Sequence record: MN781580
DNA length: 64,000 nt
Reading direction: 5' to 3' (one strand)
Source of the DNA: Shigella phage KRT47
Shown here: one piece after another, positions 1 through 13,661 of the stretch
Numbering within the stretch: position 1 is the first letter of the stretch
Layout of the letters: each line of letters opens with the position of its first letter
Notes under the pieces: model-generated
Told to the model about the DNA's origin: nothing
What the model saw: the letters and a program-made list of their open reading frames with translations, nothing else
The model's database searches: none
Program-made: the position numbers and the translations under genes

Positions 1-552
1 GATATTCGTGGTGCTCGCTGGGCAGGTGAATCCTTTAAAGCTCTGTTGTTCCAGATTGACAAAGAAGCAGTTGAAATTGCTCGTCAGACCGGTCGTGGTG
101 AAGGTAACTTCATTATCGCTTCCCGTAACGTAGTTAACGTTCTGGCTTCAGTTGATACCGGCATTTCTTATGCTGCACAGGGTCTGGCTACCGGCTTCAA
201 CACTGATACTACCAAGTCAGTATTTGCTGGTGTTCTGGGTGGTAAATACCGTGTATATATCGACCAGTATGCTAAACAGGATTATTTCACTGTAGGTTAT
301 AAAGGTCCGAACGAAATGGATGCTGGTATTTACTATGCTCCATATGTAGCTCTGACTCCGCTGCGTGGTTCCGATCCGAAGAACTTCCAACCGGTAATGG
401 GATTCAAAACTCGTTACGGTATCGGTATCAACCCATTTGCAGAATCCGCTGCTCAGGCTCCGGCTTCTCGCATCCAGAGCGGTATGCCTTCTATTCTGAA
501 TAGCCTTGGTAAAAACGCTTACTTCCGCCGTGTATATGTTAAAGGTATCTAA
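1..552 (+). CDS. 23: Major capsid protein gp23, C-terminal part (CDS begins upstream of window)
   Basis: Open frame from position 1 to stop at 552; C-terminal sequence ...GKNAYFRRVYVKGI recognised as T4 gp23; followed by hairpin terminator. Confidence 0.9.
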   Translation, partial: DIRGARWAGESFKALLFQIDKEAVEIARQTGRGEGNFIIASRNVVNVLASVDTGISYAAQGLATGFNTDTTKSVFAGVLGGKYRVYIDQYAKQDYFTVGYKGPNEMDAGIYYAPYVALTPLRGSDPKNFQPVMGFKTRYGIGINPFAESAAQAPASRIQSGMPSILNSLGKNAYFRRVYVKGI

Positions 553-565
553 TCTTTGACGATTT

Positions 566-596
566 AAGGGACCTTCGGGTCCCTTTAGTTGTTTTT
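566..596 (+). terminator. Intrinsic terminator after gene 23
   Basis: Hairpin GGGACCTTCGGGTCCC followed by T-rich tract. Confidence 0.6.
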
Positions 597-600
597 ATGG

Positions 601-608
601 TATAAATA
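601..608 (+). promoter_or_regulatory. Late promoter (TATAAATA) for gene 24
   Basis: TATAAATA 28 nt upstream of gene 24 ATG. Confidence 0.55.
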
Positions 609-635
609 AATCATATAAACCAAAAGGAAAGCGCA

Positions 636-1919
636 ATGGCTAAAATCAACGAACTTCTGCGCGAATCAACCACAACGAATAGCAACTCAATCGGTCGCCC
701 AAATCTCGTTGCTTTGACTCGCGCTACCACTAAATTAATATATTCTGACATTGTAGCAACGCAAAGAACTAATCAACCTGTTGCTGCTTTTTATGGTATC
801 AAATACCTTAACCCAGACAATGAATTTACATTTAAAACTGGTGCTACTTATGCTGGCGAAGCTGGATATGTAGACCGAGAACAAATCACAGAATTAACAG
901 AAGAGTCTAAATTAACTCTCAATAAAGGCGATTTATTCAAATATAATAATATCGTTTATAAAGTATTAGAAGATACACCATTTGCTGATATTGAAGAAAG
1001 CGATTTAGAATTGGCTCTTCAGATTGCAATTGTTCTTTTAAAGGTTCGTCTATTTTCTGACGCAGCGTCAACAAGCAAATTTGAAAGCTCTGATAGTGAA
1101 ATTGCGGATGCTAGATTCCAGATTAATAAATGGCAAACCGCAGTTAAATCTCGCAAACTTAAAACTGGTATCACAGTTGAATTAGCACAAGATTTAGAAG
1201 CAAATGGATTCGATGCTCCTAATTTCTTGGAAGATTTGCTTGCAACTGAAATGGCAGATGAAATCAATAAAGATATTCTGCAGTCTTTGATTACAGTATC
1301 AAAACGTTATAAAGTTACAGGAATTACTGATACTGGATTCATTGATTTGAGTTATGCATCTGCTCCTGAAGCAGGTCGTTCATTATACCGAATGGTATGT
1401 GAAATGGTTTCACATATCCAAAAAGAATCAACTTATACAGCAACGTTCTGTGTTGCTTCAGCTCGTGCTGCTGCGATTCTTGCTGCATCAGGTTGGTTAA
1501 AACATAAACCAGAAGATGACAAATATCTTTCACAAAATGCCTATGGGTTTTTAGCTAATGGTTTACCACTTTATTGCGATACTAACAGCCCATTAGATTA
1601 TGTAATCGTTGGCGTAGTAGAAAATATCGGTGAAAAAGAAATTGTTGGATCAATTTTCTATGCTCCGTATACAGAAGGTCTCGACTTAGATGACCCTGAA
1701 CATGTAGGTGCATTTAAAGTTGTAGTCGATCCAGAAAGCTTGCAACCGTCTATCGGTTTATTAGTTAGATATGCTTTATCTGCAAATCCTTACACCGTAG
1801 CAAAAGATGAAAAAGAAGCAAGAGTAATTGATGGTGGAGACATGGATAAAATGGCGGGTCGTTCAGATTTGTCTGTTTTATTAGGTGTTAAGCTACCAAA
1901 AATTATCATTGATGAATAA
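636..1919 (+). CDS. 24: Head vertex protein gp24
   Basis: 427 aa ORF directly after gene 23, capsid-protein-like, preceded by TATAAATA late promoter and RBS. Confidence 0.9.
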   Translation: MAKINELLRESTTTNSNSIGRPNLVALTRATTKLIYSDIVATQRTNQPVAAFYGIKYLNPDNEFTFKTGATYAGEAGYVDREQITELTEESKLTLNKGDLFKYNNIVYKVLEDTPFADIEESDLELALQIAIVLLKVRLFSDAASTSKFESSDSEIADARFQINKWQTAVKSRKLKTGITVELAQDLEANGFDAPNFLEDLLATEMADEINKDILQSLITVSKRYKVTGITDTGFIDLSYASAPEAGRSLYRMVCEMVSHIQKESTYTATFCVASARAAAILAASGWLKHKPEDDKYLSQNAYGFLANGLPLYCDTNSPLDYVIVGVVENIGEKEIVGSIFYAPYTEGLDLDDPEHVGAFKVVVDPESLQPSIGLLVRYALSANPYTVAKDEKEARVIDGGDMDKMAGRSDLSVLLGVKLPKIIIDE

Positions 1920-1920
1920 A

Positions 1921-1950
1921 ACAAAGGGACCTTTCGGTCCCTTTTTATTT
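1921..1950. terminator. Bidirectional terminator between gene 24 and rnlB
   Basis: Hairpin GGGACCTTTCGGTCCC with T-runs on both strands. Confidence 0.6.
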
Positions 1951-2953
1951 AACTTACCAATTCAATCCAAGCCGGACGAAGTACATCTTGTACCATTTTA
2001 ACTAATTCCTTTTTAATCAAAGAAGGATTATCCGCTTGAGTTAGAGTAATACCTTCACGAGAAGTTTCTTCCAAAATATCTTGAACAGTTAGTCCCATCA
2101 CCTTTCCAAAATCTTTTGGACCAATTTCGCCAATTTTAGAAATAACGTTATTTACTCGGTTTAGTGTAACGTAACAAGCTAAAATCCCCACCAATTTGTT
2201 ATCAGCTTCTGACAGTTCAACTTTAGCTTTAATAGGCTTATCAGACTTTTTCTTTTCACTAAATTTAGAATTCTTGCATTTGATGGCTACACGATTGCGA
2301 TTAGGCAGCCAAGAAGGATAACAAGGTTTCAATACATATCCTTCAGCGGTAAATACTTCGCCTTTGGCTTCAGCTTTCCAAACACATTTGTTAGCGTCAA
2401 TTAAACCTGCATTATCTACGGTAAAATTATAAGACGGAACAACAGAATCCAAATCATTTGGCAATTTAATAAGTTCTTCAAATTTACCACGACCCAAAAG
2501 TGGAGCGATTTTAAACCCAAATGAATTACAAAACGATTCCATCATGTAATCATCAACATAAGTTACATCGCCACTTTCTGTAGTGACAATAATGTCAAAT
2601 ACATAAAAATCTTTATCGCCATAATCAACATTCTTCTGAATGCCAGGTCCAGCGAATTCGCCAAAAACTTGATAAGTCACAACAGCTGAAGTTTCCATAA
2701 TTTCTTGGACAGCTTTAATAGAATCTTCGTAATTCTTTAAAATAATTTCATAACCGAAGAAATCTTCAGCAGGAAGAATCGGTCCAGTACGTTTAGCGCA
2801 AGTTACTTTATCACGCTCAATAATCAATGAGAAATTTGTGCCGTGAATCTTTTCACGAGCTACCCATTCGCCGCCAGTCAATCCCAAGCTATAAAGTTTT
2901 TCAATAAATTTAGAGTTGTAATGATTTTCAAGACTGCTATACTTTTTAAACAT
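1949..2953 (-). CDS. rnlB: RNA ligase 2
   Basis: 334 aa; N-terminus [16 protein letters not shown]...EKIHGTNFS with nucleotidyltransferase lysine motif; T4 position after gene 24. Confidence 0.9.
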
Positions 2954-2962
2954 AATTAATCC

Positions 2963-3241
2963 TCAAAATGTAATTTCTAACCAATCACCATCACGCTGAT
3001 CACTATTGACTTTAAAGCTGAATCCCTCTTTTCTCAGCCAATCACCAATTTCTTCAGTAATCAATTTATCGCGAGCAGTACAATAATAACTAAAATATGT
3101 TTTACCTTGTTCAGCTGCTTTATTAGCAAGTTCTGAAAAATCTTTAATAAAACACTCTAGCTTAAACTGTTTACTTTTTAATGCTTTTTCACGTAATTGA
3201 TTAGCAAAAGATTCATTTTCATAAAGATCATACTGTTCCAT
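2963..3241 (-). CDS. Hypothetical protein (24.2 position)
   Basis: 92 aa ORF, tightly packed between rnlB and next ORF. Confidence 0.5.
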   Translation of the reverse strand: MEQYDLYENESFANQLREKALKSKQFKLECFIKDFSELANKAAEQGKTYFSYYCTARDKLITEEIGDWLRKEGFSFKVNSDQRDGDWLEITF

Positions 3242-3443
3242 TTTTCACCTTTTTATTGATATGTCTTTTTCTATAGACAACTTTTTCTCGAGTTTCAAAT
3301 TTATTCTTAGCAGTCATAGCTCGAGCCCATAATACAGCCACTTCTTTCGCCTGTAAGTTTAATTCACGAGCAATTTCAATGAATGACTTTCCAGACTCAT
3401 GAAGAGTAAACACCACAACCTCAGTTCTCATAATCAATCTCAT
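3228..3443 (-). CDS. Hypothetical small protein with possible helix-turn-helix (24.3 position)
   Basis: 71 aa ORF; segment GKSFIEIARELNL resembles an HTH. Confidence 0.45.
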   Translation of the reverse strand: MRLIMRTEVVVFTLHESGKSFIEIARELNLQAKEVAVLWARAMTAKNKFETREKVVYRKRHINKKVKNGTV

Positions 3444-3496
3444 GTTATCGAGTTGGTGCCATTATATACATCATTTTCTGAGTGTGTTTTGTGTGC

Positions 3497-3530
3497 TTTC
3501 AAAATGAAGAAAGGGGCCGAAGCCCCTTAT
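3497..3530 (-). terminator. Terminator after hoc
   Basis: Hairpin AAGGGGCTTCGGCCCCTT followed by U-rich tract on minus strand. Confidence 0.5.
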
Positions 3531-3532
3531 GA

Positions 3533-4951
3533 TTATGGATAGGTATAGATGATACCAGTTTCTAAAGCAGTTTTATGAATGATGTATCCATTACGTGATT
3601 CTTGAACATCAACTTCTGGATAGTCTTTCATCATCTTCTGAAGGGTGTAACGATGCAGGTAGTATTTACTATCTGGATCTTCAGTTTTCCAATCTTTACC
3701 TTCTTCGGTCATTTTTTGGATTTCATCCATAACCCACCAACCGCACCAGATATAAGCCGAAGTACGATGTGGAAGAGGATGAACATAAGGCAATTCACCT
3801 TCTGGTTCTGGAGCAACTTTATCAGTTACCTGAACTTGACCTTCTGCTGTGATAGTTTTGCTATCATAATCAGTAGCAGTAACAGTTGCAGTAACTTCAA
3901 TAGTTTGACTTCCAATAGATGATGTATCAACGGTGTATACATTAGTTGACCCTTCTACTGGAGAAGAATCTTTCTTCCATGAATATTCAATTTGAGCTTC
4001 TTCTGGAGCATCAGTGACATTAGCCGTAAATGTAGCCGAAGCATCTTGCTGAACGTTAATAGAAGGAGGAGTCAATGTAACCTGTGGATTCATTGTCTTC
4101 TTATTAACCGTTAATGATACTTCATTAGAAGTAACTGTTTTTGGGTCATAATCTGTTGCTGTTACTTGGGCTACGCATTTAATTCTTTTTACTCCACTTG
4201 TAGTTGGAGTATAGCTAAATGTAGCAGAAGTTGCTTCACCAATTTGAGAATCATCTACATACCACTGATACGTAGCAGATGCTTCATCAGGTTGAGAAGC
4301 TAAGGCAGCAGTAAATTGAACTGGGGTTCCGATAACTCCCGCTGGAGGACTATCAGGAGTTACTGCCAAAGTAGTTGTCTGCGTCTTTTTATTAACAGTC
4401 AGTGACACTTCATTAGAAGTAACTTCCTTTGCATCATAATCTGCCGCAGTTACTTGAGCTACACACTTAATTGTTTTAACTCCGCTTGTGTCAGGAGTGT
4501 AATTGAATGTAGCGTCAGTTGCTTCGCCCACAGGAGAACCGTCAACGTACCATTGATACGTAGCAGATGCGCTTGGTGGCTGTGAAGCTAAGGCAGCGGT
4601 AAATTCAATTGGAGTTCCAATCACTCCAGCATCAGGGCTACCAGGAGTTACTGCCAAAGTAGTTGTTTGTGTCTTATTTTGAACTGTGATAGTTGTACTA
4701 ATTTCAGCTGTTTCGGGACTACTATCGGCAACTTGATTGGTTGCAACTACTTTAATAGTCTTTTGACCGGCAGGTCCTTTTAGTACATAACTAAAAGTTG
4801 CTTCAGCTCCATCTTGTGGAACATCGTCTACAGTCCAAGCATATGTAATAGGTCCATCTCCAGTTTGACCACTGGGTGTAGCAGTAAACTGCTGAGTCTG
4901 ATCTATAACTCCAGTAGGTGTTTTAGGAGTTATATCAACTGTAAAAGCCAT
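3533..4951 (-). CDS. hoc: Hoc, highly immunogenic outer capsid protein, with four Ig-like domains
   Basis: 472 aa; repeated Ig-like modules with YxW motifs; two near-identical 96-aa tandem modules; T4 position between 24.3 and inh. Confidence 0.85.
   Translation of the reverse strand: MAFTVDITPKTPTGVIDQTQQFTATPSGQTGDGPITYAWTVDDVPQDGAEATFSYVLKGPAGQKTIKVVATNQVADSSPETAEISTTITVQNKTQTTTLAVTPGSPDAGVIGTPIEFTAALASQPPSASATYQWYVDGSPVGEATDATFNYTPDTSGVKTIKCVAQVTAADYDAKEVTSNEVSLTVNKKTQTTTLAVTPDSPPAGVIGTPVQFTAALASQPDEASATYQWYVDDSQIGEATSATFSYTPTTSGVKRIKCVAQVTATDYDPKTVTSNEVSLTVNKKTMNPQVTLTPPSINVQQDASATFTANVTDAPEEAQIEYSWKKDSSPVEGSTNVYTVDTSSIGSQTIEVTATVTATDYDSKTITAEGQVQVTDKVAPEPEGELPYVHPLPHRTSAYIWCGWWVMDEIQKMTEEGKDWKTEDPDSKYYLHRYTLQKMMKDYPEVDVQESRNGYIIHKTALETGIIYTYP
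4100..4675 (-). repeat. Tandem duplication of about 288 bp inside hoc (two Ig-like domain copies)
   Basis: Protein modules KTQTTTLAVTPGSPDAGVIGTP...SLTVNK and KTQTTTLAVTPDSPPAGVIGTP...SLTVNK are near identical; nucleotide copies visible at about 4100-4387 and 4388-4675. Confidence 0.8.
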
Positions 4952-4960
4952 AAGTTATCC

Positions 4961-5641
4961 TTATTTTAATGTTACGAAAGAAGAATTACGTGTTTCACGA
5001 ATTAGAACTGATCCGTCACGATTAATGTAGTAAATTAAGCTAAATAAAGTTTGGTGTGCCGACGCATGTTCAAAACTAGTTGGGTGAGATTTCCAATCAG
5101 GAGTTTCAGCAATCCATTGATAAATCCACCAAGGAACAGTGCAGAATCCTGGATTTTTTCCAATCAGCTGAAGATTCGGACTAAAGTTTTCCGGAAGAGT
5201 AAATACAGACGGCTTTTCAGATTCAATAATCTCAGCTACAGCCTGTTCGAATTTTTCTTCAACAAAAGGAGTATCTTCAATTAAAACAGTGGTATTTTCA
5301 GGAATTTTATCCGTTTCTACTACTTCAATTTTAATGTCAGATTTAACCGGAGAATCAATCAGAAGTGCTGCCTCTGGATTGACTTCTTCATCGTCATATT
5401 TTAATCCGTCTGCAGCATCAGCAGCATCAATTAAGTCTTTAATAGATAACCCATCAGTCTCTGGCATAGGTTCACTAGCGAGCTTCTGGAGGGCTTCTTC
5501 AATATCAGCAACGATATTATCAAAAGATTTATTCTTTTTGACCTTTATACCAAACTGCTCAGCATATTCAGCTAATTTAGCTTTAGCTTCTTTGTTATCA
5601 TCAAGAGCCTTCAGCTCTGCAATATAATCTTTATCTATCAT
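4961..5641 (-). CDS. inh: Inh, inhibitor of prohead protease
   Basis: 226 aa acidic protein at the T4 inh position next to hoc. Confidence 0.7.
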   Translation of the reverse strand: MIDKDYIAELKALDDNKEAKAKLAEYAEQFGIKVKKNKSFDNIVADIEEALQKLASEPMPETDGLSIKDLIDAADAADGLKYDDEEVNPEAALLIDSPVKSDIKIEVVETDKIPENTTVLIEDTPFVEEKFEQAVAEIIESEKPSVFTLPENFSPNLQLIGKNPGFCTVPWWIYQWIAETPDWKSHPTSFEHASAHQTLFSLIYYINRDGSVLIRETRNSSFVTLK

Positions 5642-5654
5642 AATATTTCCTCAG

Positions 5655-5662
5655 TATAAATA
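5655..5662 (+). promoter_or_regulatory. Late promoter (TATAAATA) for uvsW
   Basis: TATAAATA about 30 nt upstream of uvsW ATG. Confidence 0.5.
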
Positions 5663-5691
5663 TAGATATATTTATTACATGGTATTTAGAC

Positions 5692-7203
5692 ATGACTGAC
5701 ATTAAAGTACATTTTTATGATTTTAGTCACGTGAGAATTGATTGTGAAGAAAGTACATTTCATGAACTCCGTGATTTCTTTAGCTTTGAAGCTGATGGGT
5801 ATCGTTTTAATCCGAAATACAAATATGGCCACTGGGATGGACGAATCCGTCTTTTAGATTATAATCGTCTTCTTCCATTCGGCTTAGTCGGGCAAATTAA
5901 AAAGTTCTGTGATAACTTTGGCTATAAAGCCTGGATTGACCCACAAATTAACGAAAAAGAAGAATTATCAAGAAAAGATTTTGATGAATGGCTTTCTAAA
6001 TTAGAAATCTATTCAGGAAATAAAAGAATTGAACCGCACTGGTATCAAAAAGATGCAGTGTTCGAAGGATTAGTTAATCGTCGTAGAATTCTTAATCTTC
6101 CAACATCCGCTGGTAAATCGTTAATTCAAGCTTTGCTTGCGCGATATTATTTGGAAAATTATGAAGGTAAAATTCTTATCATTGTTCCAACAACTGCTCT
6201 AACAACTCAGATGGCTGATGACTTCGTTGACTATCGTTTATTCAGTCATGCAATGATAAAGAAAATTGGTGGCGGAGCATCAAAAGATGATAAATATAAA
6301 AATGATGCACCAGTCGTTGTTGGTACATGGCAAACTGTAGTAAAACAACCGAAAGAATGGTTCTCACAGTTTGGAATGATGATGAATGATGAATGCCATC
6401 TTGCTACAGGAAAAAGTATTTCATCTATCATATCAGGTTTAAATAACTGCATGTTCAAATTTGGTCTATCTGGTTCATTACGTGATGGCAAAGCCAATAT
6501 CATGCAGTATGTTGGAATGTTTGGTGAAATATTTAAGCCAGTAACGACTTCTAAGTTAATGGAAGATGGACAAGTAACTGAGCTAAAAATTAATAGTATT
6601 TTTCTTCGCTATCCCGATGAGTTCACTACTAAATTAAAGGGAAAAACTTATCAAGAAGAAATAAAAATTATTACGGGGCTTAGTAAAAGAAATAAATGGA
6701 TCGCTAAATTAGCTATTAAGCTTGCGCAAAAAGATGAAAACGCTTTTGTCATGTTTAAACATGTATCACATGGTAAAGCTATTTTCGATTTAATTAAAAA
6801 TGAATACGATAAAGTTTATTACGTATCAGGGGAAGTTGATACCGAAACCCGCAATATAATGAAAACCTTAGCTGAAAATGGTAAAGGAATAATTATAGTA
6901 GCTAGTTATGGTGTATTTTCTACTGGTATTTCAGTTAAAAATCTGCATCACGTTGTTTTAGCGCACGGTGTTAAATCAAAAATCATTGTATTACAAACAA
7001 TCGGTCGTGTATTACGTAAGCATGGTTCTAAGACAATAGCAACAGTCTGGGACCTCATAGATGATTGTGGTGTTAAGCCAAAATCTGCTAATACTAAAAA
7101 GAAATATGTTCATTTGAACTATCTTTTAAAACACGGCATTGATCGTATTCAGCGCTACGCAGATGAAAAATTTAATTACGTAATGAAAACAGTTAATTTA
7201 TAA
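5692..7203 (+). CDS. uvsW: UvsW DNA/RNA helicase
   Basis: 503 aa; Walker A PTSAGKS and DECH box (NDECHLATGK); preceded by TATAAATA. Confidence 0.9.
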   Translation: MTDIKVHFYDFSHVRIDCEESTFHELRDFFSFEADGYRFNPKYKYGHWDGRIRLLDYNRLLPFGLVGQIKKFCDNFGYKAWIDPQINEKEELSRKDFDEWLSKLEIYSGNKRIEPHWYQKDAVFEGLVNRRRILNLPTSAGKSLIQALLARYYLENYEGKILIIVPTTALTTQMADDFVDYRLFSHAMIKKIGGGASKDDKYKNDAPVVVGTWQTVVKQPKEWFSQFGMMMNDECHLATGKSISSIISGLNNCMFKFGLSGSLRDGKANIMQYVGMFGEIFKPVTTSKLMEDGQVTELKINSIFLRYPDEFTTKLKGKTYQEEIKIITGLSKRNKWIAKLAIKLAQKDENAFVMFKHVSHGKAIFDLIKNEYDKVYYVSGEVDTETRNIMKTLAENGKGIIIVASYGVFSTGISVKNLHHVVLAHGVKSKIIVLQTIGRVLRKHGSKTIATVWDLIDDCGVKPKSANTKKKYVHLNYLLKHGIDRIQRYADEKFNYVMKTVNL

Positions 7204-7216
7204 GGGCTTCGGCCCT

Positions 7217-7459
7217 TTGGAGAAAAAGATGTTACTAGAATTTAAACAATTTCTTTATGAAGCTTCTATTGATGAATTTATGGGTAAAATTGCCTCTTGT
7301 CAAACATTAGAAGGTTTAGAAGAACTTGAAGCTTATTATAAGAAAAGAGTTAAAGAAACTGAATTAAAAGATACTGATGACATCTCTGTGAGAGATGCTT
7401 TGGCAGGAAAAAGAGCTGAATTAGAAGATTCAGACAATGAAGTAGAAGAAAGCTTTTAA
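7217..7459 (+). CDS. uvsW.1: UvsW.1 small acidic protein
   Basis: 80 aa ORF immediately downstream of uvsW with RBS. Confidence 0.6.
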   Translation: MEKKMLLEFKQFLYEASIDEFMGKIASCQTLEGLEELEAYYKKRVKETELKDTDDISVRDALAGKRAELEDSDNEVEESF

Positions 7460-7514
7460 ATTAAAAAAGGCCCAACCAAAAAGGAAGGGCCAAAACTATA
7501 GACTAAAGGTCACA

Positions 7515-7682
7515 CTATAGCAAAAGTTGTGTTTCATTTAATTGTTCTTCCGAACTTTCTGAAACTGGTAGTTCTTTAATGTAATTATAACAAGGCCCAG
7601 GATGTACAGGACCTTTGTCTGTTTCAACAACCAATGCAGAATCGATTGGAGTTTTACAGACAACACAAATCTTATCTGACAT
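7515..7682 (-). CDS. Small Cys-containing protein (uvsY.-2 position)
   Basis: 55 aa ORF MSDKICVVCKTP...HPGPC, found by manual translation; not in ORF track because under 60 aa. Confidence 0.35.
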   Translation of the reverse strand: MSDKICVVCKTPIDSALVVETDKGPVHPGPCYNYIKELPVSESSEEQLNETQLLL

Positions 7683-7710
7683 GATTGTCTCCTCTAAATT
7701 ATATATCTAT

Positions 7711-7935
7711 TTATATAACTCTCATATGCATATCAATGCCCATATCTTTAGAATAAAAATATTCATCAAGATATCCGGAAAATTTTCCTTTAACATAAAG
7801 TACATCTTCACCGCATGGATGGTCGGCCAGGATACGAATATCCTGACGCTTGAGATTATACTTTTTCATTAAGAATTGAATTTCCGTTTCGAATTCTTCT
7901 TCATAATTAAAAGCATCATCAATGCTATATCTCAT
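7711..7935 (-). CDS. Hypothetical protein (uvsY.-1 position)
   Basis: 74 aa ORF whose start overlaps the uvsY stop. Confidence 0.45.
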   Translation of the reverse strand: MRYSIDDAFNYEEEFETEIQFLMKKYNLKRQDIRILADHPCGEDVLYVKGKFSGYLDEYFYSKDMGIDMHMRVI

Positions 7936-8348
7936 TATTTTCCAGCCTCAAATGCTCGCATGTCTTGAATATGCTTAATAGCAAATCCGCGTGATTTAAT
8001 AGCATCAAGAGCTCCGCTACAGAAATCTAATAAAATTCCCCAATATTGTAATGAAGTATCAACTTTTAAAACATCCTTATCAGCTGATAGAACTGTCTTC
8101 ATTTCTGATTTCTCATAACGGTCCATACTAAATTCATCACCATCTCCTCGTCCCGAGTAGTAGTCTAATTTAGCTTTAAGAGCAACTTTTTTCTGTGCAT
8201 CAATTCTAAGCATTTCCTTTTTAATACTTGAATGCTTATTAAGCCATTTACTATATAACATCACATTATTAGCTGCTTCATACTGTAATTTAGTCGAATC
8301 TATAAACACATCTTTCTTCAATTCTTCTTGAAGATCTTCTAATCTCAT
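7935..8348 (-). CDS. uvsY: UvsY recombination mediator
   Basis: 137 aa, T4 UvsY-like; MotA-type middle promoter upstream. Confidence 0.85.
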   Translation of the reverse strand: MRLEDLQEELKKDVFIDSTKLQYEAANNVMLYSKWLNKHSSIKKEMLRIDAQKKVALKAKLDYYSGRGDGDEFSMDRYEKSEMKTVLSADKDVLKVDTSLQYWGILLDFCSGALDAIKSRGFAIKHIQDMRAFEAGK

Positions 8349-8388
8349 ATTGTTCTCTATTCAATTGTTATTGGATGGACTTAGATTC

Positions 8389-8416
8389 ATTATACCACGT
8401 TTATACGTGAAGCATT
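8389..8416 (-). promoter_or_regulatory. MotA-dependent middle promoter for uvsY
   Basis: Minus strand reads aaTGCTTCA, 13 nt, TATAAT; matches MotA box plus -10 spacing. Confidence 0.5.
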
Positions 8417-8813
8417 ATACTCTGTTACTGGAAGCCAGTTGTAGTTTTATCTGTTCAATATCATCAGGGTTATCGATGACCGAAAAGCGTATTTCTACTA
8501 TCAGAGTATAATCATCATAAACCGGTATTACATTAACTGCTAATTTATCAATACGTGGCTCGTAGTTTCTTACTGCGCTTTCAATGTTACGCTCAACAGT
8601 ATCAGCAGTAAGAGGAGTCATATTCTCAAAAAGCTGATCAGATAAATCGCATCCAAATTCTGGGTCAAATGGCCTTGACCCTTTCCTGGTTGTAATAATT
8701 CCCAAAAGGCTATTTTTAATTGACCTTAATCCAAGAGATCTGGAAACGTCTTTGTCCCAATCCATTTTCATTTCTGGGTCAATGTCAGAATAAAGCTTAT
8801 TAATATTTGCCAT
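8415..8813 (-). CDS. 25: Baseplate wedge protein gp25
   Basis: 132 aa, T4 gp25-like, overlaps gene 26 stop. Confidence 0.9.
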   Translation of the reverse strand: MANINKLYSDIDPEMKMDWDKDVSRSLGLRSIKNSLLGIITTRKGSRPFDPEFGCDLSDQLFENMTPLTADTVERNIESAVRNYEPRIDKLAVNVIPVYDDYTLIVEIRFSVIDNPDDIEQIKLQLASSNRV

Positions 8814-9439
8814 TACAATAGCTCAAAGAATTCTTTGAGTCCTCTTATTACATGAGCGTGAGTTTTTCCACACTCTGGACATTTAATTGGAACAGCCAAA
8901 TAAACAGTAGGCTTTAAAAGCATATCTTTTATAGCTACAATATCTGACTCTGTGATGATAGAATATAAATCTTCCAACTCTTTTTCATTTAAGTCTTCAA
9001 TTGGAATGCTTTCACCGTTAGCATGAATCGTTTCTATACATGATACTATCATGTGGGCTATATTTTTATCATCAAAAATTTTAGGGTAATGGAACTTAAT
9101 TTTAATGTCACCCAGTGTATACCAGAGGTCTTCTGGTGCATCTATTTGTGTATGTAATAGATTTATATGGGTTGGTATTTCAGTTCCGCAGGTGCACTTC
9201 CAGGAGTTTTCGTGATTAACTTCTCCAAGAGAATGTGCCCATAAATGAATCAATAGTAGTTCTGATTCTTGGCGGTTTAAATCTTTTGCATTTGTGCATT
9301 CTTTAATTAGCTTTTTAACGATCTCTTCTACTGAACCGTTCTTTTTAGCAGTAATAAGTTCTAGATATTCTTTAAGAGTAAATGCGCGACAGTTGATTAT
9401 TTTAGAACCAACTCTCACATCAAATTTGTATTCATACAT
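8813..9439 (-). CDS. 26: Baseplate hub protein gp26
   Basis: 208 aa, divergent from gene 51 as in T4. Confidence 0.85.
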
Positions 9440-9460
9440 ATTTAGCTCCTTTATTTATCA

Positions 9461-9468
9461 TATTTATA
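9461..9468 (-). promoter_or_regulatory. Late promoter (TATAAATA) for gene 26
   Basis: Minus-strand TATAAATA immediately upstream of gene 26 start. Confidence 0.5.
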
Positions 9469-9472
9469 AATA
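9465..9472 (+). promoter_or_regulatory. Late promoter (TATAAATA) for gene 51
   Basis: Plus-strand TATAAATA 18 nt upstream of gene 51 ATG. Confidence 0.55.
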
Positions 9473-9489
9473 GAATAAAAGGAGCATCT

Positions 9490-10239
9490 ATGGCAAACAT
9501 TATTCGTTGTAAATTACCAGATGGTGTTCATCGTTTTAAACCATTTACGGTAGAAGATTATCGAGATTTTTTGTTAGTTCGAAACGATATAGAACATCGG
9601 TCACCACAAGAACAAAAAGAAATAATTGCTGATTTAATTGCTGATTATTTTGGAGACTATCCGAAGACTTGGCAACCATTTATATTTTTGCAGGTATTTG
9701 TAGGGTCAATAGGTAAAACTAAAGTACCAGTCACATTTGTGTGTCCAAAATGTAAAAAAGAAAAGACAGTTCCATTTGAAATATATCAAAAAGAATTAAA
9801 GGAACCTGTTTTTGATGTAGCTAATGTTAAAATTAAATTAAAGTTTCCTTCTGAGTTTTATGAAAATAAAGCAAAGATGATTACTGAAAATATTCATTCC
9901 GTTCAAGTAGATGAAATGTGGTATGATTGGAAGGAAATTAGCGAATCGAGTCAAATAGAACTTGTTGATGCCATCGAGATAGAAACATTAGAAAAAATTC
10001 TCGATGCAATGAATCCTATTAATTTAACATTGCATATGTCGTGTTGTAATAAGTATGTAAAAAAATACACTGATATAGTAGATGTGTTTAAGCTATTAGT
10101 TAACCCAGATGAAATATTTACTTTTTATCAAATCAATCACACGCTCGTAAAAAGTAATTATAGCTTAAATTCAATAATGAAAATGATTCCTGCTGAGCGC
10201 GGATTCGTATTAAAACTGATTGAGAAGGATAAACAATAA
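9490..10239 (+). CDS. 51: Baseplate hub assembly catalyst gp51
   Basis: 249 aa, T4 gp51-like. Confidence 0.85.
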
Positions 10240-11414
10240 TGAGTATGTTGCAACGCCCCGGATATCCAAATCTCAGCGTTAAATTATTTGATAGCTACGA
10301 CGCTTGGAGTAATAATAGATTTGTTGAATTAGCTGCTACTATTACTACATTAACTATGCGGGATTCTCTTTATGGCCGAAATGAAGGAATGCTACAGTTT
10401 TATGATTCTAAAAACATCCATACAAAAATGGATGGAAATGAAATAATTCAGATTTCTGTAGCTAATGCAAACGATATTAATAATGTTAAAACACGAATTT
10501 ATGGATGTAAGCATTTTTCCGTGTCAGTAGATTCAAAAGGCGATAACATCATTGCTATTGAATTGGGAACTATTCATTCTATAGAAAATCTTAAATTTGG
10601 TAGACCATTTTTCCCTGATGCAGGTGAATCTATAAAAGAAATGCTTGGTGTCATTTATCAAGATCGCACATTATTAACTCCAGCAATAAATGCTATAAAT
10701 GCTTATGTTCCTGATATTCCATGGACTAGCACATTTGAAAACTATTTGTCATATGTAAGAGAAGTTGCTCTAGCTGTAGGAAGCGACAAATTTGTATTTG
10801 TATGGCAAGACATCATGGGAGTTAACATGATGGACTATGATATGATGATAAATCAAGAACCATACCCAATGATTGTCGGTGAGCCATCTTTAATAGGTCA
10901 ATTCATCCAAGAATTAAAATATCCATTAGCATATGATTTCGTTTGGTTGACTAAATCGAATCCTCACAAACGTGACCCAATGAAAAATGCTACTATCTAT
11001 GCTCATTCATTTTTAGATTCTTCACTGCCAATGATTACTACAGGAAAGGGCGAAAACTCTATTGTGGTGTCAAGGTCAGGTGCTTATTCTGAAATGACTT
11101 ATAGGAATGGATATGAAGAAGCTATTCGTCTTCAAACTATGGCACAATATGACGGCTATGCTAAATGTTCTACTGTCGGTAATTTTAACTTGACTCCTGG
11201 TGTTAAAATTATTTTTAATGATAGTAAAAACCAATTTAAAACAGAATTTTACGTTGATGAAGTTATCCATGAATTATCAAATAATAATTCAGTAACTCAT
11301 CTATATATGTTCACTAATGCAACGAAACTGGAAACAATAGACCCAGTTAAGGTTAAAAATGAATTTAAATCTGATACTACCACTGAAGAAAGTAGTTCTT
11401 CCAATAAGCAATAA
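10239..11414 (+). CDS. 27: Baseplate hub subunit gp27
   Basis: 391 aa, T4 gp27-like. Confidence 0.9.
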
Positions 11415-11892
11415 AGAAGTTTCTATTCCTAAAATGGGTCTTAAACATTATAACATTTTAAAAGATGTTAAAGGTCCTGATGAAAATTTAAAACTTCTTA
11501 TTGATTCTATTTGTCCGAATTTGTCACCAGCAGAAGTTGATTTCGTTTCTATTCATTTATTGGAATTTAATGGAAAGATTAAATCTCGTAAAGAAATAGA
11601 TGGTTATACTTATGACATTAATGATGTTTATGTATGCCAAAGATTAGAATTTCAATACCAAGGAAATACATTTTATTTTAGACCTCCTGGAAAATTTGAA
11701 CAATTTTTAACGGTGAGCGATATGTTATCTAAATGCTTGCTTAAGGTCAACGATGAAGTTAAAGAAATTAATTTTCTTGAGATGCCAGCATTCGTTTTAA
11801 AATGGGCAAATGATATTTTTACAACTTTAGCAATTCCTGGCCCTAATGGTCCAATAACTGGAATTGGCAATATTATTGGATTATTTGAATGA
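11359..11892 (+). CDS. 28: Baseplate hub distal subunit gp28
   Basis: 177 aa, overlaps gene 27 end in another frame. Confidence 0.8.
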
Positions 11893-13661
11893 AAAAGCCA
11901 CAAGAAATGCAAACGATGCGTAGAAAAGTTATTTCAGATAATAAACCAACACAGGAAGCGGCTAAATCCGCTTCCAACACTTTATCTGGACTTAATGATA
12001 TATCTACGAAATTGGATGATGCTCAAGCTGCTTCTGAATTAATAGCTCAAACTGTCGAAGAAAAATCGAATGAAATAGTTGGAGCAATTGGTAACGTAGA
12101 AAGCGCAGTGAGTGATACTACTGCTGGTTCTGAGTTAATTGCTGAAACTGTCGAAATTGGCAACAATATTAATAAAGAAATCGGTGAATCACTCGGAAGC
12201 AAATTAGATAAATTAACAAGTTTACTAGAGCAAAAAATCCAGACAGCTGGAATTCAACAAACAGGAACTAGTTTAGCTACGGTTGAAAGCGCTATTCCTG
12301 TTAAAGTTGTTGAGGACGATACAGCTGAATCTGTGGGTCCTTTATTACCGGCTCCTGAAGCAGTTAATAATGATCCTGATGCTGATTTTTTCCCTACCCC
12401 TCAGCCAGTTGAACCTAAACAAGAATCGCCAGAAGAAAAACAGAAAAAAGACGCATTTAACTTAAAATTATCTCAAGCTTTAGATAAATTAACAAAGACT
12501 GTTGATTTCGGATTTAAGAAATCTATTTCAATTACTGATAAAATATCAAGCATGCTATTTAAGTATACAGTCAGTGCTGCTATTGAAGCTGCTAAAATGA
12601 CTGCAATGATATTGGCTGTTGTTGTCGGAATAGACCTGCTGATGGTTCATTTCAAATATTGGTCAGATAAATTTTCACAGGCTTGGGATTTGTTTAGTAC
12701 AGACTTTACTAAATTCTCTAGCGAAACCGGAACATGGGGCCCTTTATTACAGAGCATCTTTAGTTCTATTGATAAAATTAAGAAGCTGTGGGAAGCTGGA
12801 GATTGGGGCGGATTGACAGCAGCTATTGTAGAAGGGCTTGGAAAGGTTCTTTTTAATTTAGGAGAGCTTATTCAACTTGGAATGGCTAAATTATCTGCTG
12901 CAATTCTTCGAGTCATTCCTGGCATGAAAGACACTGCTGACGAAGTAGAAGGAAGAGCACTAGAAAATTTCCAAAACACTACAAATGCTTCTCTTAGCAA
13001 AGAAGACCAAGAAAAAGTTGCAAATTATCAATATAAAAGAATGAATGGCGATCTTGGTCCAATAGCAAAAGGACTAGACAAAATTGCGAACTGGAAAACT
13101 CGTGCATCTAACTGGATTCGTGGTGTTGATAATAAAGAAGCACTAACGACTGATGAAGAGAGAGCAGAGGAAGAAGAAAAATTAAAGCAACTTTCTCCGG
13201 AGGAAGCTAAAATTGCTTTAATGAAAGCTAATGAAGCTCGCGCTGCTATGAATCGTTTTGATGAATATGCTAATTCAGCTGATATGAGTAAAGACTCAAC
13301 GGTTAAATCAGTTGAAGCTGCCTATGAAGACCTTAAAAAACGGATGGATGACCCGGATTTAAATAATTCACCGGCAGTTAAAAAAGAACTTGCTGCTAGA
13401 TTTTCTAAAATTGATGCTACTTATCAAGAGCTCAAGAAAAATCAGCCTAATGCCAAACCTGAAACTTCTGCTAAATCACCAGAAGCAAAACAAGTCCAGG
13501 TAATAGAAAAGAACAAAGCACAACAAGCTCCTGTTCAACAGGCATCTCCTTCGATCAATAATACTAATAATGTTATTAAGAAAAATACTGTCGTTCATAA
13601 TATGACACCTGTCACAAGCACAACTGCTCCTGGTGTATTTGATGCGACTGGGGTTAATTAA
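11889..13661 (+). CDS. 29: Baseplate hub / tail length determinator gp29
   Basis: 590 aa, coiled-coil and hydrophobic segments typical of tape-measure-like gp29. Confidence 0.85.
   Translation: MKKPQEMQTMRRKVISDNKPTQEAAKSASNTLSGLNDISTKLDDAQAASELIAQTVEEKSNEIVGAIGNVESAVSDTTAGSELIAETVEIGNNINKEIGESLGSKLDKLTSLLEQKIQTAGIQQTGTSLATVESAIPVKVVEDDTAESVGPLLPAPEAVNNDPDADFFPTPQPVEPKQESPEEKQKKDAFNLKLSQALDKLTKTVDFGFKKSISITDKISSMLFKYTVSAAIEAAKMTAMILAVVVGIDLLMVHFKYWSDKFSQAWDLFSTDFTKFSSETGTWGPLLQSIFSSIDKIKKLWEAGDWGGLTAAIVEGLGKVLFNLGELIQLGMAKLSAAILRVIPGMKDTADEVEGRALENFQNTTNASLSKEDQEKVANYQYKRMNGDLGPIAKGLDKIANWKTRASNWIRGVDNKEALTTDEERAEEEEKLKQLSPEEAKIALMKANEARAAMNRFDEYANSADMSKDSTVKSVEAAYEDLKKRMDDPDLNNSPAVKKELAARFSKIDATYQELKKNQPNAKPETSAKSPEAKQVQVIEKNKAQQAPVQQASPSINNTNNVIKKNTVVHNMTPVTSTTAPGVFDATGVN

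Follow-up and report, generated by a model that had tools for sequence, protein, structure and literature searches.

Shigella phage KRT47 carries a four-Ig-domain form of the head fibre protein Hoc that is very probably old and widespread among tequatroviruses

We analysed a stretch of 64,000 nucleotides from Shigella phage KRT47 (sequence record MN781580), hereafter the window, which is a Tequatrovirus (T4-like) stretch. Near one end of it lies an open reading frame that, among solved structures, matches T4 Hoc (5vf3_Z, 376 aa) with E=1e-223. It is flanked by an inh homologue (4961..5641) on one side and by homologues of 24.3, 24.2 and rnlB on the other, so that the inh-hoc-24.3 order annotated in T4, RB27, RB51 and other phages is conserved. 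The signals around the gene are listed in Table 1. The hairpin directly 3' of the stop codon has a counterpart in phage NBG2, where a terminator is annotated at the equivalent site. A search of the minus strand upstream of inh and of hoc for an exact match to the T4 late-promoter motif TATAAATA gave none, and neither tRNA genes nor Rfam matches were found within the 64-kb window. We read the gene as an ordinary hoc allele; in a Tequatrovirus, hoc encodes the dispensable fibre that decorates the head.

Table 1. Features of the hoc locus, in positions of the window.
Feature	Position	Strand	Basis and remarks
Terminator-like hairpin and T-tract	3501..3528	-	Scan match AAGGGGCTTCGGCCCCTT then TCTTCATTTT; consensus match only
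hoc CDS, 472 aa	3533..4951	-	ORF list; stop codon at 3533-3535
C-terminal capsid-binding domain (aa 381-472)	3536..3811	-	Near-identical to T4 residues 285-376
Ig-like domain 3 (aa 285-380)	3812..4099	-	Pfam Ig_3 and I-set at 289-373; AF2 beta-sandwich at 285-376
Domain-2 unit b (aa 189-284), T4 domain 2 orthologue	4100..4387	-	Identity, diagnostic sites, clade bootstrap 94
Domain-2 unit a (aa 93-188), absent from T4	4388..4675	-	TRF and repeat search; clade bootstrap 100
Ig-like domain 1 (aa 1-92)	4676..4951	-	AF2 beta-sandwich at 1-91; 36-37% identical to domain-2 units
Shine-Dalgarno-like AAGGA	4958..4962	-	Read from sequence; 6 nt before the hoc ATG, overlaps the inh stop codon

Alignment of this Hoc with that of T4 falls into two stretches: T4 residues 1-122 align to residues 1-122 of the window protein, and T4 residues 93-376 to residues 189-472. 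This means that the window Hoc carries exactly one extra module of 96 aa. At the DNA level, TRF reports a repeat with a 288-nt period (2.0 copies, 4095-4675, 79% matches, score 731), the sole long tandem repeat within the window, and the two units that form it, a and b, follow each other head-to-tail, are equal in length and stay in frame without disruption. A preliminary description of this DNA, made from the letters alone, had already put the ORF at 472 aa, one 96-aa module more than the 376 aa of T4 Hoc, and had placed the two adjacent modules within it. The ORF list, the T4 structure and locus, the alignment and the TRF period confirm this reading, down to the exact unit boundaries.

The same description had proposed counting the Ig domains by structure prediction. 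We modelled the protein twice with AlphaFold2 (AF2), once from its sequence alone and once from an alignment of 30 sequences, and both models contain four beta-sandwich modules, at residues 1-91, 93-187, 189-283 and 285-376. In the model from 30 sequences, pLDDT is ~85-95 over residues 1-376; for domain 3 it is 85-94 over 285-376. An alpha/beta domain of lower confidence follows the Ig modules at the C-terminus. A Foldseek search of the PDB returned four-Ig chains (Dscam1, ICAM-5 D1-D4), the crystal structure of RB49 Hoc (3shs) and a Ca2+-stabilised bacterial ice-binding adhesin, and Pfam gave generic PKD, Ig_3, Ig_2 and BiPBP_C matches above cut-offs. Pfam, AF2 and Foldseek thus all find the N-terminal string of Ig-like beta-sandwich domains that is characteristic of Hoc. 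Domains 1, 2 and 3 are distant paralogues of each other (29-40% aa identity, z = 5-11; domain 3 is 39-40% identical to the domain-2 units), which indicates that the fibre was built by serial duplication and that the domain-2 units are its youngest tier.

The other end of the protein is the capsid anchor. Residues 377-472 align almost identically to T4 281-376. In T4, the residues that contact gp23 are Y293, H295, H299, R300, W309 and W310 (PMC10385173); their equivalents in the window Hoc (Y389, H391, H395, R396, W405 and W406) do not vary among 30 sequences, as expected of a capsid-binding Hoc. Domains 1 and 2 are far more variable than domain 3 and the anchor domain.

From two adjacent, in-frame units of exactly 288 nt each, in a gene of which T4 has a version with only one, it is easy to suspect a recent tandem duplication of domain 2 in the phage's own lineage, and this is how the preliminary description read them, calling the copies near identical at protein level. 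That wording overstates their likeness: 80 of 96 residues are identical (83%), and the DNA is 78-82% identical. By the Nei-Gojobori method (NG86), the two units of the window differ by dN = 0.125 and dS = 0.92 (dN/dS = 0.13), a synonymous divergence that contradicts a recent origin. Other genomes give a similar picture, with dS = 1.1 in phiD1, RB27 and YUEEL01, and ranges of 0.92-1.14 for dS and 0.11-0.13 for dN/dS over all genomes tested. As a yardstick, dS (NG86) between unit b of the window and the single unit of T4 is 0.235, and domain 1 and the C-terminal domain give 0.24 for the same pair of phages. Since dS is 0.92 between a and b and only ~0.24 between the window and T4, the duplicate pair is, in terms of synonymous divergence, several-fold older than the split between these two hoc genes. 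By the dN/dS values, both copies have evolved under purifying selection.

To place the two units among those of other phages, we compared 15 genomes, i.e.: the window and 14 GenBank phage loci. The panel was drawn from GenBank phage records because a scan of IMG/VR for related loci gave only ~4 close relatives. In nucleotides, unit a of the window shares 84-93% identity with the unit that comes first in each multi-unit Hoc of the panel, and 78% with the unit of T4. For unit b, the identity is 88-95% with the second unit where a Hoc has two or three and with the third in slur03, and 90% with the only unit of T4. Within each panel genome, a and b share only 76-78% identity. A set of 33 diagnostic sites splits a from b types consistently across genomes; by these, T4 and RB51 each have a single unit of pure b-type. 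Genes with three or four units end in a third type, c. A neighbour-joining tree of the units (200 bootstraps) supports clades a (100), c (100) and b (94, including T4, RB51 and unit 2 of slur03), with the single units of ELT1 and phiC600P9 on a separate branch beside b (bootstrap 80). Genes with two units have the types in the order a-b, and those with three in the order a-b-c; slur03 has a-(b-like)-b-c, and in T4 and RB51 b stands alone.

Units therefore cluster by position and not by genome, which implies that the duplication predates the divergence of the panel phages. This positional orthology refutes a recent duplication in the KRT47 lineage: each copy is much closer (93-95%) to the same-position unit of other phages than to its own neighbour, and we regard such an event as scarcely credible. 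A clean a/b chimera, the mark of a deletion by unequal crossover, was not found in the single-unit phages of the panel. Within slur03, unit 2 falls in the b clade and may represent a secondary duplication of b.

How common each form is was estimated from 60 evenly spaced records out of the 658 phage records that match hoc, and from protein clusters at 90%. We scored length by the span of the gene in each record, since megablast coverage is blind to the number of units: both units of the query align to a single one (e.g. in ELT1). In this sample, a hoc of ~1419 nt occurs in 16 of the 60 records (~27%) and one of ~1131 nt in ~35, the rest being other forms or partial matches. Among the best 120 protein clusters, 79 are of 376 aa, 29 of 472 aa and 8 of 568-570 aa, and there are large clusters of the 472-aa form, with 68, 167, 72 and 58 members. 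The best one-piece DNA matches to the window hoc in the phage collection are all of about 1419 nt (1418-1422 nt), and the best whole-gene match is 94.4% identical in nucleotides and 95% in amino acids. The two-unit form is also that of RB27 and phiD1. Longer forms exist too: in a tblastn search with a 570-aa Hoc, genes of ~1704 nt turned up in at least 22 phage records, and Escherichia phage slur03 has a gene of 1995 nt that encodes 664 aa and four domain-2 units. This last protein (NC_042129, 1210-3204 of the extracted locus) is the longest Tequatrovirus Hoc in this analysis.

The phages whose flanking sequences are nearest to those of the window tell the same story. The gene was checked in 13 of the 15 nearest: in 12 its length is 1418-1422 nt (A2, with 1422 nt, phiD1, in two records, Kelasse, 101117BS1, teqsoen, QOTSP, KMB23, BGP, Some, LF73P1, teqhal and slur11), and NR1 has the one-unit form. 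The sharing of the architecture by nearly all of them again speaks against a duplication private to KRT47. The preliminary description had itself asked whether a four-domain Hoc is common in close relatives; it is, in these neighbours as in the wider sample. What stands of its central claim is an extra Ig-like domain relative to T4, a tandem paralogue of domain 2; that the duplication should be recent or notable does not.

Tandem repeats are known to cause assembly errors, and an artificial expansion of the repeat could in principle also produce a 472-aa Hoc. At 78% identity, however, the copies differ about every 4-5 bases, which leaves no ambiguity in the placement of reads; the frame is uninterrupted, and the signature of purifying selection noted above is present in both copies; and the 1419-nt gene is found in dozens of independently sequenced phages, e.g. 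RB27, phiD1, KMB23 and Sf23. An assembly artefact is hence a very unlikely source of this protein, and we assign it a virtually negligible probability.

Some records deserve a separate mention. In MZ501066.1 (FriedrichMiescher), MK327940.1 (G29) and MZ234018.1 (101117BS1), hoc is annotated in two parts or CDSs, under labels such as 'Hoc part 1 / part 2' or 'PKD domain protein x2', which suggests that the repeats in those assemblies contain frameshifts or sequencing errors. A 1419-nt hoc with 93.6% identity to that of the window is found in MG010123.1 ('Staphylococcus phage SAJK-IND', 32 kb); this record probably represents a T4-like coliphage fragment and is mislabelled or contaminated. Two IMG/VR contigs of ~170 kb encode Hocs of 471-472 aa that are ~49% identical to that of the window (at 2501-3910 of locus L005 and 2501-3907 of locus L006). 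They have a ~95-aa repeat of their own, with starts near aa 185-192 and 279-287 and 58-80% aa identity between copies. The different position of this repeat suggests that Ig domains were duplicated independently in other lineages of T4-like phages.

We observed a marked difference in diversity between hoc and its surroundings: across the panel, the flanking genes are 96-99.7% identical, and the Ig part of hoc 78-98%. Within the gene, the nearest allele switches by segment. Domain 1 is nearest to A2, ELT1 and phiC600P9 (98%), units a and b to phiD1, ESh33 and YUEEL01 (93-95%), domain 3 to KMB23 (98%) and the C-terminal domain again to KMB23 (100%). From this switching we infer recombination. 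Set against A2, whose flanks are closest to those of the window, the central part of hoc resembles a patch that has been replaced; the window gene as a whole combines known segment alleles into a new mosaic.

Nearest relatives also switch at a larger scale. Over positions 1-12000, the window shares 97-98% identity with Shigella phage A2, Yersinia phage phiD1 and many more; from 12 to 37 kb the nearest phages are ECP2301 and Shfl2 (~97%); and from 37 to 62 kb, tail fibres included, the nearest is ime09 (96%, 98% coverage). No record in the phage collection matches throughout positions 1-62000. This is typical Tequatrovirus mosaicism. A homing-endonuclease gene found between inh and uvsW, which encodes a helicase, in T4, ELT1, phiC600P9 and NBG2 is absent from the window (4961-7203), as well as from phiD1, RB27 and RB51, and in the panel its presence does not follow the number of hoc units.

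The mosaic structure of hoc allows for a different origin of the array, in which a and b were brought together by unequal recombination between already diverged hoc alleles of different lineages, so that the copies were ~20% different from the start. Several observations are in line with it: the gene is visibly mosaic, with an Ig part far more diverse than its flanks; the single-unit alleles of ELT1 and phiC600P9 represent a further distinct lineage; and the amino acid differences between a and b sit at columns that are polymorphic in the population (mean entropy of 1.24 vs 0.21 bits, over 160 domain-2 units). Yet orthologous b-type units differ by at most ~12% in the panel, compared to 22-24% between a and b, and a pure a-type unit occurs in no single-unit phage of the panel. 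This scenario, which differs from our preferred explanation only on the question of origin, seems rather unlikely to us.

The explanation that we favour, and hold to be very probably correct, is that the window carries an old and widespread a-b two-unit allele of hoc, in a genus with variable domain-2 arrays. On this view, domain 2 of Tequatrovirus Hoc is a tandem array of 96-aa modules that varies in copy number, with one to four units in the 15-genome panel. The modules are old types in a fixed positional order, of which the KRT47 phage has the common a-b form. Copy numbers may have spread, or been interconverted, through homologous or unequal recombination between co-infecting phages.

What a second unit does to the fibre can be approached from T4, where one Hoc monomer sits at the centre of each gp23 hexamer via its C-terminal domain and projects as a fibre (PMC9958956, PMC10385173). 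The near-identity of the anchor domain leads us to expect the same stoichiometry here, with the C-terminal domain of the window Hoc likewise attached at the centre of gp23 hexamers. The additional Ig module should extend the fibre accordingly beyond the 180 Å of T4. The domain-2 surface has been implicated in binding mucin fucose and E. coli surfaces. In phage PNJ-9, domain-2 residues S183-L184-T185 are reported to bind MUC2 fucose (PMC11853027), and the NEVSLTVNK segment is present in both units of the window protein, with the equivalent residues at 183-185 and 279-281. A two-unit Hoc would hence show the domain-2 surface twice. The longer fibre and the doubled surface plausibly raise reach or avidity, and the idea of the preliminary description that a lengthened fibre could alter adhesion is a reasonable one.

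One can go further and propose that domain 2 is an ordered cassette array, whose modules are shuffled by recombination in an adaptive, niche-linked tuning of fibre length and glycan avidity. We consider this a tentative and somewhat doubtful reading. If it were true, the near-saturated dS between neighbours (~1, with dN/dS ~0.12) would persist because it guards the array against recombinational collapse.

The Hoc of KRT47 is a real, ordinary and already documented kind of variation. A four-Ig Hoc is a frequent allele class that has long been sequenced (RB27, phiD1) and carries little weight as a discovery, and variation in the number of Ig domains of Hoc is already known from published work (Fokine 2023, PMC10385173; Fu 2024). 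In the literature searched we found neither a description specific to the 472-aa form nor a systematic account of an ordered module organisation within the genus. The only mildly novel aspect is the series itself: one to four units, ordered and positionally conserved in a single genus, with near-saturated dS between neighbours. The practical consequences are modest. Hoc is a display platform and is implicated in mucus adherence, so those who work with tequatroviruses other than T4 should expect from 2 to 6 Ig modules; and the natural series of one to four units is a ready-made set for relating fibre length and domain-2 copy number to mucin or cell binding.

Compared with T4 Hoc, the window protein is encoded by the same gene at the same locus, has the same C-terminal anchor, and its domains 1, 2b and 3 are orthologous to those of T4. 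It differs by unit a, situated between domain 1 and the T4-like domain 2, and its Ig part is 78-92% identical to T4 in nucleotides, depending on the segment. The closest parallels are RB27, Yersinia phage phiD1, Shigella phage ESh33, vB-Eco-KMB23 and many other tequatroviruses, which share the arrangement of domain 1, units a and b, domain 3 and the C-terminal domain in 1419 nt; their Hocs are 91-95% identical overall to that of the window, with allelic differences only. At the short end, the T4-like phage PNJ-9 has a Hoc of 283 aa with only two Ig domains (PMC11853027). At the long end, Hoc homologues reach up to 10 Ig domains, the number found in Serratia phage Muldoon (PMC10385173). UGKSEcP2 and YUEEL01 (568-570 aa) and slur03 (664 aa) resemble the window in combining a conserved capsid anchor with a variable number of tandem Ig modules, and these three- and four-unit forms differ from it by extra module types (c, and b-like) set in the same a...b order.
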